64,000 nt of DNA from NCBI RefSeq assembly GCF_056712565.1, contig NZ_CM160072.1. One strand, 5' to 3'. Position numbers and translations under genes: made by a program. Shown here piece after piece: positions 2,812-7,544 of this stretch (position 1 is the stretch's first letter; each line of letters starts with the position of its first letter). The notes below the pieces were generated by a model that was not told where the DNA came from, did no database searches, and worked only from the letters and a program-made list of their open reading frames with translations.

Positions 2812-2848
2812 TACATAAAAACAAAAACCCTCTGTAAAAACAGAGGGT
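2812..2848 (-). terminator. Rho-independent terminator downstream of guaA
   Basis: Hairpin ccctctg-taaaaa-cagaggg, followed on the minus strand by TTTTTGTTTTT, about 50 nt past the guaA stop. Confidence 0.5.
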
Positions 2849-2895
2849 TAAATTAGTATCTGAATAGGAATGAGTTGCTATGAGTTAGCTGTTAA

Positions 2896-4473
2896 TCATT
2901 CCCACTCAATAGTTGCTGGTGGCTTGCCGCTGATGTCATACACCACGCGGGAAATACCATTCACTTCATTGATAATGCGGTTGGAAACGCGGCCGAGGAA
3001 GTCGTACGGCAGATGTGCCCAGTGTGCGGTCATAAAGTCGATGGTTTCGACAGCACGCAGAGAGACAACCCAGTCATACTTACGACCATCGCCCATTACG
3101 CCAACGGAACGTACTGGCAAGAAGACGGTGAACGCCTGGCTGACTTTGTCGTACAGGTCCGCTTTACGCAGTTCTTCAATGAAGATGGCGTCAGCACGGC
3201 GCAGCAGGTCACAATACTCTTTCTTCACTTCTCCCAGAACACGAACGCCAAGGCCTGGTCCCGGGAACGGGTGACGGTACAACATGTCATACGGTAGGCC
3301 CAGCTCCAGACCAATCTTACGCACTTCGTCTTTGAACAGCTCTTTCAGCGGTTCAACCAGGCCCATCTTCATCTCTTTCGGCAGGCCACCCACGTTGTGG
3401 TGAGATTTGATGACGTGTGCTTTACCGGTTGCAGAAGCAGCAGATTCGATAACGTCAGGGTAGATGGTGCCCTGCGCCAGCCACTTCACGTCTTCCAGTT
3501 TCAGCGCTTCTTCATCGAATACTTCAACGAAAACGCGACCGATAATTTTACGTTTTGCTTCCGGATCGTTTTCGCCAGCCAGCGCTGACAAGAAGCGATC
3601 TTCTGCCGGTACGTGAACAATGTTCAGACCAAAGTGATCGCCAAACATATCCAGAACCTGCTCTGCTTCGTTGAGACGCAGCAGGCCGTTGTCGACGAAT
3701 ACGCAAGTCAGGTTTTTACCGATAGCGCGGTGCAACAGCATTGCGGTAACGGAGGAATCCACGCCACCAGAGAGGCCGAGGATGACTTTATCGTCGCCCA
3801 CTTGCTCGCGGATGCGGGCTACAGCGTCGTCGATAATTTTCGCTGGCGTCCACAGGGCTTCACACTGGCAGATATCACGCACAAAACGCTCCAGCATGCG
3901 CATACCCTGGCGGGTGTGAGTCACTTCCGGGTGGAACTGTACGCCATAGAAGCGTTTTTCTTCGTTGGCCATGATGGCAAACGGGCAGCTTTCGGTGCTG
4001 GCTACGGTGACGAAGTCGGACGGGATAGCGGTAACTTTATCGCCGTGGCTCATCCAGACGTCCAGCAGCGGTTTACCATCTGCGGTCAGCGCATCTTCGA
4101 TACCGCGAACCAGTGCGCTGTCGTTTACGACTTCAACCTGCGCGTAGCCAAATTCACGTTCGTTAGAGGCTTCAACGTGACCGCCCAACTGCATTGCCAT
4201 GGTCTGCATGCCATAGCAAACGCCGAATACCGGTACGCCTGCTTCAAAGACATACTGCGGCGCACGCGGGCTGTTTTCTTCGGTGGTGCTTTCCGGGCCG
4301 CCGGAAAGAATAATGCCGCTTGGATTGAAGTCACGAATTTGTGCTTCTGTCACATCCCACGCCCACAGTTCGCAGTAAACACCCAGCTCACGCACGCGGC
4401 GCGCAACCAGTTGAGTGTACTGAGAACCGAAGTCCAGAATGAGGATGCGATGCTTATGAATGTTTTCCGTCAT
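2896..4473 (-). CDS. guaA: GMP synthase (glutamine-hydrolysing)
   Basis: 525 aa; [36 protein letters not shown]... through ...[11 protein letters not shown] start. Confidence 0.97.
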
Positions 4474-4541
4474 TGACGCTTATTCCGAGGCAAGTGAAAC
4501 AGATAATATAAATCGCCCGACATGAAGTCGGGCGAAGAGAA

Positions 4542-6008
4542 TCAGGAGCCCAGACGGTAGTTCGGGGACTCTTTAGTAATGGTCACGTCGTGAACGTGGC
4601 TTTCCTGAATGCCCGCACCGCTGATACGTACAAACTCCGCTTTAGTACGCAGTTCGTCGATAGTACCACAGCCGGTCAGGCCCATACAGGAGCGCAGGCC
4701 GCCCATCTGCTGGTGAATGATCTCTTTCAGGCGACCTTTATAGGCTACGCGGCCTTCGATACCTTCCGGCACCAGTTTGTCGGCAGCGTTGTCGCTCTGG
4801 AAGTAACGGTCAGAAGAACCTTTGGACATCGCGCCCAGGGAACCCATACCACGGTAAGATTTGTAAGAACGGCCCTGGTAGAGTTCGATTTCACCCGGAG
4901 ATTCTTCAGTACCTGCCAGCATGGAACCTACCATCACCGCGCTTGCGCCAGCGGCGATAGCTTTAGCGATATCGCCTGAGAAACGGATACCGCCGTCAGC
5001 GATAACCGGAATGCCGGTACCTTCCAGGGCTTCTACTGCATCAGCAACGGCGGTGATCTGCGGAACACCGACACCAGTCACGATACGCGTCGTACAGATA
5101 GAACCAGGGCCGATACCCACTTTAACGGCACTGCAACCGGCTTCTGCCAGCGCGCGGGCACCTGCAGCAGTTGCCACGTTGCCGCCGATGATTTGCAGGT
5201 CAGGATATTTAGCGCGAGTTTCACGGATACGCTGCAGAACACCTTCAGAGTGACCGTGAGAGGAGTCGATCAGCAGAACGTCAACGCCTGCGGCAACCAG
5301 CGCATCAACACGCTCTTCGTTACCAGCGCCCGCGCCAACCGCTGCACCTACACGCAGACGGCCTTGTTCGTCTTTACACGCGTTCGGTTTACGTTCCGCT
5401 TTCTGGAAGTCCTTCACAGTGATCATGCCGATCAGGTGGAATTCATCATCAACCACCAGCGCTTTTTCAACGCGTTTTTCGTGCATTTTTGCCAGCACCA
5501 CTTCACGGGCTTCGCCTTCACGCACGGTTACCAGACGCTCTTTCGGCGTCATGTAAACGCTAACCGGCTGGCTCAAGTCGGTCACAAAACGCACGTCACG
5601 ACCGGTGATAATGCCGACCAGTTCGTTTTCTTCGGTAACAACCGGGTAGCCAGCAAAGCCGTTACGCTCGGTCAGTTCTTTCACTTCACGCAGCGTCGTG
5701 GTTGGCAGTACGGTCTGTGGATCAGTCACCACGCCAGATTCGTGTTTTTTCACACGGCGAACTTCTTCTGCCTGGCGTTCAATGGACATGTTTTTGTGGA
5801 TAAAGCCGATACCGCCTTCCTGAGCCAGAGCAATAGCCAGGCGCGCTTCCGTTACGGTATCCATTGCTGCGGAAAGCATAGGGATATTCAGACGAATAGT
5901 TTTCGTCAGCTGGGTGCTGAGGTCAGCAGTATTCGGCAGAACGGTAGAATGAGCAGGAACGAGGAGAACGTCGTCAAACGTCAGAGCTTCTTTAGCGATA
6001 CGTAGCAT
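4542..6008 (-). CDS. guaB: IMP dehydrogenase
   Basis: Translation from [18 protein letters not shown]... (488 aa) with CBS pair and catalytic [11 protein letters not shown] loop. The track ORF extends 23 codons upstream; the ATG at 6006-6008 is taken as the start. Confidence 0.95.

Positions 6009-7544
<1,536 letters not shown>

Follow-up and report, generated by a model that had tools for sequence, protein, structure and literature searches.

Genes and hairpin of the guaB-guaA spacer

The window, i.e., the whole 64-kb stretch of DNA analysed, carries guaB and guaA as neighbouring cistrons on the minus strand. The coding sequence of guaB, the gene of IMP dehydrogenase, occupies positions 4542..6008 (−), as supported by the NCBIfam equivalog TIGR01302 (667 bits) and by the RefSeq annotation of identical E. 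coli DNA; its translation ends in NYRLGS, followed by the stop codon UGA at 4544..4542 (−). The downstream cistron guaA (2896..4473, −) codes for the glutamine-hydrolysing GMP synthase (NCBIfam equivalog NF000848, 834 bits; RefSeq annotation). The two genes are separated by 4474-4541, a gap of 68 nt, exactly the length given in a first-pass annotation that had been made from the letters of the DNA. The window is E. coli DNA. Many RefSeq E. coli chromosomes match the 261 bases round the hairpin described below with 100 % identity, and their annotation has guaB ending and guaA starting within this stretch. In E. coli K-12 (NC_000913.3) guaA is located at 2630958-2632535 and guaB at 2632604-2634070. 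The spacers of K-12 and the window are identical, thus an MG1655 coordinate x corresponds to the window position x − 2628062. A program-made open reading frame for guaB extended over 4542-6077 (−), beginning with an ATG that precedes the annotated start by 69 nt and encoding 511 instead of 488 amino acids. The NCBIfam profile match starts at residue 31 of this long frame, and RefSeq annotates the shorter protein.

The gap contains a hairpin that had been recognised earlier as an 8-bp palindrome. It was confirmed at 4514-4534 on the plus strand, cgcccgac-atgaa-gtcgggcg. On the transcribed minus strand the RNA of 4535..4513 reads UCGCCCGAC-UUCAU-GUCGGGCGA, with the 5' arm at 4535..4527, a loop of 5 nt at 4526..4522 and the 3' arm at 4521..4513. 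A flanking U-A pair extends the stem to 9 bp, seven of them G-C. The complete transcript from the guaB stop to the guaA start is UGA-UUCUCU-UCGCCCGAC-UUCAU-GUCGGGCGA-UUUAUAUUAU-CUGUUUCACUUGCCUCGGAAUAAGCGUCA-AUG. According to sequence and fold, the UUCUCU between stop codon and stem (4536..4541, −) is single-stranded. Past the stem lies the U-rich tail UUUAUAUUAU (4503..4512, −), seen in the sequence and by a terminator-like scan, which contains 6 U in 10 positions and is the AU-rich tract that the first-pass annotation had placed behind the hairpin. The interval assigned to the element at that time, 4505-4535, covers hairpin and tail, and its low end coincides with the position of a published 3' terminus. 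Three U adjoin the stem, then interruptions follow, with three A residues breaking the U-tract; the longest U run at this tail is listed as 3 in the TRS table (PMC10687069).

The 68-nt spacer folded with −20.2 kcal/mol (z −3.8) and the 23-nt hairpin alone with −17.7 kcal/mol (z −6.4); in both cases none of 200 shuffled sequences was as good. The hairpin was present in the minimum free energy structure as well as in the centroid structure of a 198-nt context. The terminator-like scan picked it up with 9 pairs, seven of them G-C. As a count, the scan is uninformative (6 hits versus 5.3 expected in 4.2 kb); the weight rests on the quality of this hit and on the z-scores from shuffling. Stem and loop lie within the range of G+C-rich stem-loops of intrinsic terminators on the transcribed strand (about 5-14 bp, loop of 3-8 nt). 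Where an intrinsic terminator has a U-rich tract with a length of about 7-9 nt, directly 3' of the stem, the interrupted tail was observed. A bidirectional terminator was considered and rejected: the plus strand continues with AAGAGAAUCAGG, which has no T tract, and a convergent gene is lacking.

Behind guaA, the same scan located an operon-end terminator, AACCCUCUGU-UUUU-ACAGAGGGUU followed by UUUGUUUUUA, at 2816..2849 (−) with −15.4 kcal/mol. Its K-12 counterpart has been reported as the primary guaA terminus at 2630899-2630908 (PMC10687069). The loop is UUUU in the window and UACU in K-12, and the tail differs too. Positions 1-2895, directly downstream of guaA, belong to an integrase-led element with the integrase frame at 1453-2703 (−); RefSeq matches to the element comprise the integrase, an MT-A70 methyltransferase, a PerC-family regulator, an HTH regulator and a DUF1382 protein. 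Of 5426 complete E. coli genomes, only about 553 contain the element; its place is taken by yfgI-yfgH-yfgG in K-12 and in the O157:H7 strain examined. The deviation of terminator loop and tail from K-12 suggests that the insertion point of the element may be in or just past the guaA terminator.

Conservation and covariation of the hairpin

A scan for GuaA with one genome per species yielded 80 loci; they range from Escherichia albertii to Aeromonas, Vibrionaceae and Alteromonadales. guaB was located directly upstream of guaA in 80 of the 80 loci, and every spacer, whether from Enterobacterales, Aeromonas, Vibrionaceae or Alteromonadales (80/80), held a stable hairpin with −11 to −27 kcal/mol. 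The median distance from the guaB stop codon to the hairpin was 10 nt (IQR 7-15), that from the hairpin end to the guaA start 40 nt (80 loci each). The 9 nt behind the hairpin consisted of 59 % T versus 33 % in the remaining spacer (80 loci; paired Wilcoxon p = 3e-13, a value that overstates the independence of phylogenetically related loci). The stem CGCCCGGC/GCCGGGCG was common to Enterobacteriaceae and Erwiniaceae, with freely varying loops. Unrelated stems were found in Photorhabdus, Xenorhabdus, Yersinia, Providencia, Aeromonas, Zobellella and the Alteromonadales. T tracts accompanied the unrelated stems of Yersinia, Zobellella, Aeromonas, Providencia and the Alteromonadales, and several of the unrelated stems resembled canonical terminators, e.g., TAGTCATCTGGTG...CATCAGATGACTA-TTTTTTATTTT in Yersinia artesiana. 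From these comparisons, the conserved unit is the hairpin together with a T-rich tail, i.e., the architecture of a terminator.

Thirty-five sequences of the CGCCCGGC group from Enterobacteriaceae and Erwiniaceae were aligned (alignment A1). In this alignment 95 % of the cells were in standard pairs and five of the nine pairs had changed on both sides, so that the conservation across Enterobacteriaceae, which the first-pass annotation had suggested looking for, was indeed found. None of 500 shuffles was as good, and no slid register matched. At the top of the stem, E. coli and Citrobacter have A-U for G-C; C-G was replaced by U-A in a Klebsiella species and by A-U in Cedecea neteri. Among 5425 E. 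coli genomes, 5413 had the 68-nt spacer with at least 99 % identity, versus 4819 for the 261-nt stretch including the coding flanks. Covariation and conservation within the species together indicate that the pairing is most probably maintained by selection.

One Enterobacteriaceae metagenome-assembled genome (L017:1931-2000) seems to carry the shared palindrome with its two arms exchanged, GCCGGGCGCC...GCGCCCGGT. A different hairpin, GCCGGGTGGGCGTAACGCTGCCCGGC, replaces the shared one in Escherichia sp. ESNIH1 and Pseudescherichia vulneris (L018, L022:1922-2000). These cases show a turnover of the sequence while a hairpin stays at the same place. Spacers of 190-300 nt with extra hairpins were observed in Vibrio, Psychrosphaera and other marine Gammaproteobacteria (L069, L081, L067, L073); in these loci guaA may have its own promoter or a further regulatory RNA.

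The translation-initiation region of guaA (4474..4500, −) was delimited from alignment A1, in which the block GUUUCACUUGCCUCGGAAUAAGCGUCA was nearly invariant among the genera of Enterobacteriaceae. It includes a Shine-Dalgarno-like GGAA at 4486..4483 (−), which would serve guaA as ribosome binding site. The 27 nt before the guaA start, GUUUCACUUGCCUCGGAAUnAGCGUCA, were almost invariant across the Enterobacteriaceae genera (A1 columns about 66-107), a conservation that exceeds the apparent need of the short GGAA. In the fold of the E. coli spacer, UGUUUC can pair weakly with GGAAUA ahead of guaA.

RNA ends mapped in K-12

The usual point of RNA release at intrinsic terminators is 8-9 nt after the stem. 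In MG1655 a 3' terminus peak has been reported at 2632563-2632574 (−), corresponding to window positions 4501..4512 (TRS, PMC10687069). Its dominant position 2632567/8 is 4505-4506 in the window, 8-9 nt past the stem and hence at the distance of about 7-9 nt at which intrinsic terminators have their in vivo 3' ends. In the LB RNAtag-seq list the peak is entered with the dominant position 2632567, a signal of 0.66 and rank 1359; the adjusted p values in three LB RNAtag-seq libraries were 4e-53, 3e-45 and 9e-40. A second list has 2632568 as dominant position with a signal of 0.82. The table gives the peak the label 'Alternative primary in TU' (guaB) and prints a fold that is, base for base, the hairpin and tail of the window (PMC10687069). 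The rank of only 1359 marks it as a weak site.

In a Term-seq catalogue (PMC7815308), the only 3' end of the spacer is 2632596, window position 4534 (−), observed solely in LB at OD600 2.0. The 3' end in this catalogue is base 51 of the 61 printed, a convention that was checked against the sgrS and rpsT terminators; with it, 2632596 is the C at the 5' foot of the stem (position checked in locus L001). The catalogue has no 3' end past the U-tract in any of its conditions, LB OD 0.4, LB OD 2.0 and M63. The 3' end at the stem foot is accounted for neither by termination nor by 3' trimming.

A third study (PMC10667835) mapped an RNase E-dependent 5' end at 2632604, window position 4542 (−), which is the A of the guaB stop codon (UG/AUUCU); 7.4 % of the coverage started there in the wildtype versus 1.5 % in the rne strain (FDR 0.027). 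The SEnd-seq-based operon table of this study presents guaBA as one unit of 3204 nt (2630902-2634105) with a single TTS, spanning everything between the transcription start of guaB and the terminator past guaA. For the operon (row 327 of its Table 7), zero RNase E 3' ends and zero pnp, rnb or rnr stops are given, all for log phase only.

The three end-mapping studies of the same strain disagree at the spacer: the first has a 3' end past the U-tract, the second has just the stem-foot 3' end, in late growth, and the third has nothing but the RNase E 5' end at the stop codon. Mapped RNA ends, the absence of which the first-pass annotation had regarded as speaking against its view, were present in K-12 at 2632567/8 and 2632596 (3') and at 2632604 (5'). 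Its proposal of a partial terminator or a processing site was supported in part: three published ends are in or beside the spacer, but two catalogues are without a terminator here. The 3' end just past the hairpin is reproducible but modest and under the thresholds of these two catalogues, and any termination is therefore partial and modest. Ahead of the hairpin there is minor processing as well, in the adjoining single-stranded UUCUCUUC.

Probable partial termination between guaB and guaA and its alternatives

The element is probably a weak, leaky Rho-independent terminator inside the guaBA operon. RNA polymerase starting at the guaB promoter would pass the guaB stop codon and, 6-7 nt further on, transcribe the G+C-rich hairpin; a fraction of the polymerases would then release the transcript in the interrupted U-tract UUUAUAUUAU. 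The product would be a guaB-only mRNA, whose 3' hairpin should also shield it from 3'-to-5' exonucleases. The other polymerases would go on through guaA as far as the strong terminator at 2849..2816. Since guaBA is catalogued as one 3204-nt unit, read-through into guaA is substantial. Overall, transcription from the one promoter should then yield guaB message in excess of guaA message. We infer that termination, not trimming, generates the end at 2632567/8, and infer likewise the efficiency of termination and the effect on the ratio of GuaB to GuaA.

The position of the 3' end, taken alone, fits both termination and exonucleolytic trimming back to the hairpin. The hairpin could thus be an exonuclease barrier and not a terminator, which we regard as possible but unlikely. 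An endonucleolytic cut in the AU-rich tract or in guaA, or a Rho-terminated species, would then be followed by trimming to the hairpin by PNPase or RNase II, and the guaB mRNA would be stabilised while the guaA segment decays faster. RNase E prefers single-stranded AU-rich sequences, and the downstream AUUUAUAUUAUCUGUUU is single-stranded and AU-rich. The upstream cistron carries a stable hairpin at its 3' end, trimmed ends likewise accumulate 8-9 nt past a stem and explain the observed end equally well, and the two catalogues without a terminator fit an origin by processing. However, in the one data set designed to find such events, from log phase only, guaBA has neither an RNase E 3' end nor a stop of PNPase, RNase II or RNase R at the 3' side of the hairpin, and the sole RNase E site of the operon is upstream of the hairpin instead of downstream (PMC10667835). 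The T-rich tail speaks for a terminator because a pure exonuclease barrier would need no U tract, yet the T-richness past the stem is conserved across the 80 loci.

A further proposal, which we consider doubtful, is that translation of guaB gates the terminator, the ratio of GuaA to GuaB then being set by the coupling of transcription and translation, possibly by the GTP/ppGpp status. Since the stem begins 6-7 nt past the UGA, a ribosome terminating there would cover the 5' arm and block folding; a polymerase with a ribosome close behind would read into guaA, and an uncoupled polymerase would terminate. The idea draws on ribosome footprints and on reporter studies in which termination was reduced by a stop codon near the hairpin. 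The short, conserved distance between stop codon and hairpin (median 10 nt, IQR 7-15) would be compatible with such a gating.

Less likely than a terminator or a barrier are a role in RNase E cleavage and the lack of any function. RNase E sites are common in single-stranded U-rich segments beside stem-loops and near stop codons. A processing site of this kind, separating the cistrons by a cut at UG/AUUCUCUUC/G, would yield a guaA mRNA starting with the hairpin, which would position the cut or modulate decay or translation of the guaA fragment. Such a role is improbable. It agrees with the RNase E-dependent 5' end at 2632604 and with the 3' end mapped to the 5' stem foot (2632596; LB, OD 2.0), but the former accounts for only about 7 % of the coverage, the two ends are 8 nt apart and therefore not the two products of one cut, and the stem-foot end was obtained in one condition of one study. 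In addition, an 8-nt single-stranded 5' leader would presumably not stop the 5'-end-dependent entry of RNase E, and the conserved T-rich tail is left unexplained. Similarly improbable is the absence of a selected function in present E. coli, i.e., a decayed ancestral terminator or a neutral palindrome tolerated on account of high read-through: the U-tract is degenerate with its three A interruptions, and the site is missing from two 3'-end catalogues and ranks low in a third, but compensatory changes keep the pairing across genera, the spacer hardly varies among 5425 E. coli genomes and none of the 80 spacers lacks a hairpin, not even those with a replaced sequence.

If the element acts as a leaky terminator, it would provide a fixed excess of the IMP dehydrogenase message over the GMP synthase message from a single promoter, a small hard-wired control of stoichiometry in purine nucleotide synthesis. 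This would be of practical use in the engineering of guaBA and for guaBA deletions in vaccine strains. For terminator prediction, the site is a benchmark case, being weak, operon-internal and inconsistently called across 3'-end methods. It opens no new question, as textbooks already cover both partial terminators inside operons and hairpins between cistrons. The element is of a known kind, and the site is a row in a published supplementary table without an assigned mechanism or function (PMC10687069); neither a dedicated functional study of the guaB-guaA spacer nor in vitro data on termination there were found in the literature searched.

Among known RNA families, the Rfam covariance models gave no family at the gathering threshold for the hairpin region. 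The best scores, 24.7 bits for Hrs12 (RF02630; threshold 70) and 18.5 bits for NsiR1 (threshold 39), were driven by the terminator hairpin. Hrs12 shares a terminator stem, CGCCaGGC...GCCuGGCG, with a U-tract. An identity with Hrs12 was rejected: it is the MicF orthologue beside ompC in Erwinia amylovora and not linked to guaB, the resemblance being that of terminators in general. A REP/BIME element was rejected as well, the spacer occurring at one place per genome in 5425 genomes; the hairpin pattern had one match in the 64-kb window, even with 3 mismatches allowed.

The REP hairpins between malE and malF are intercistronic stabilising hairpins. Like these and other hairpins of processing and stabilisation, the stem-loop right after guaB could block 3'-to-5' exonucleases and raise the level of the upstream mRNA. 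In contrast to the malE-malF REP hairpins, it is present in a single copy and has a conserved T-rich tail. Other than for stabilising hairpins, neither an exonuclease stop nor a downstream RNase E cut has been reported for guaBA (PMC10667835).

Internal partial terminators of E. coli are the rplL-rpoB attenuator and T1 between rpsU and dnaG in the rpsU-dnaG-rpoD operon. For these two, efficiencies have been measured and genetic proof exists, whereas the terminator between guaB and guaA is predicted, has a weaker U-tract and is not called in two genome-wide catalogues. Like the rplL-rpoB attenuator and T1, it has a G+C-rich hairpin with a U-rich tract between cistrons of one transcription unit and a 3' end past the stem, with substantial read-through and an expected higher expression of the upstream gene.
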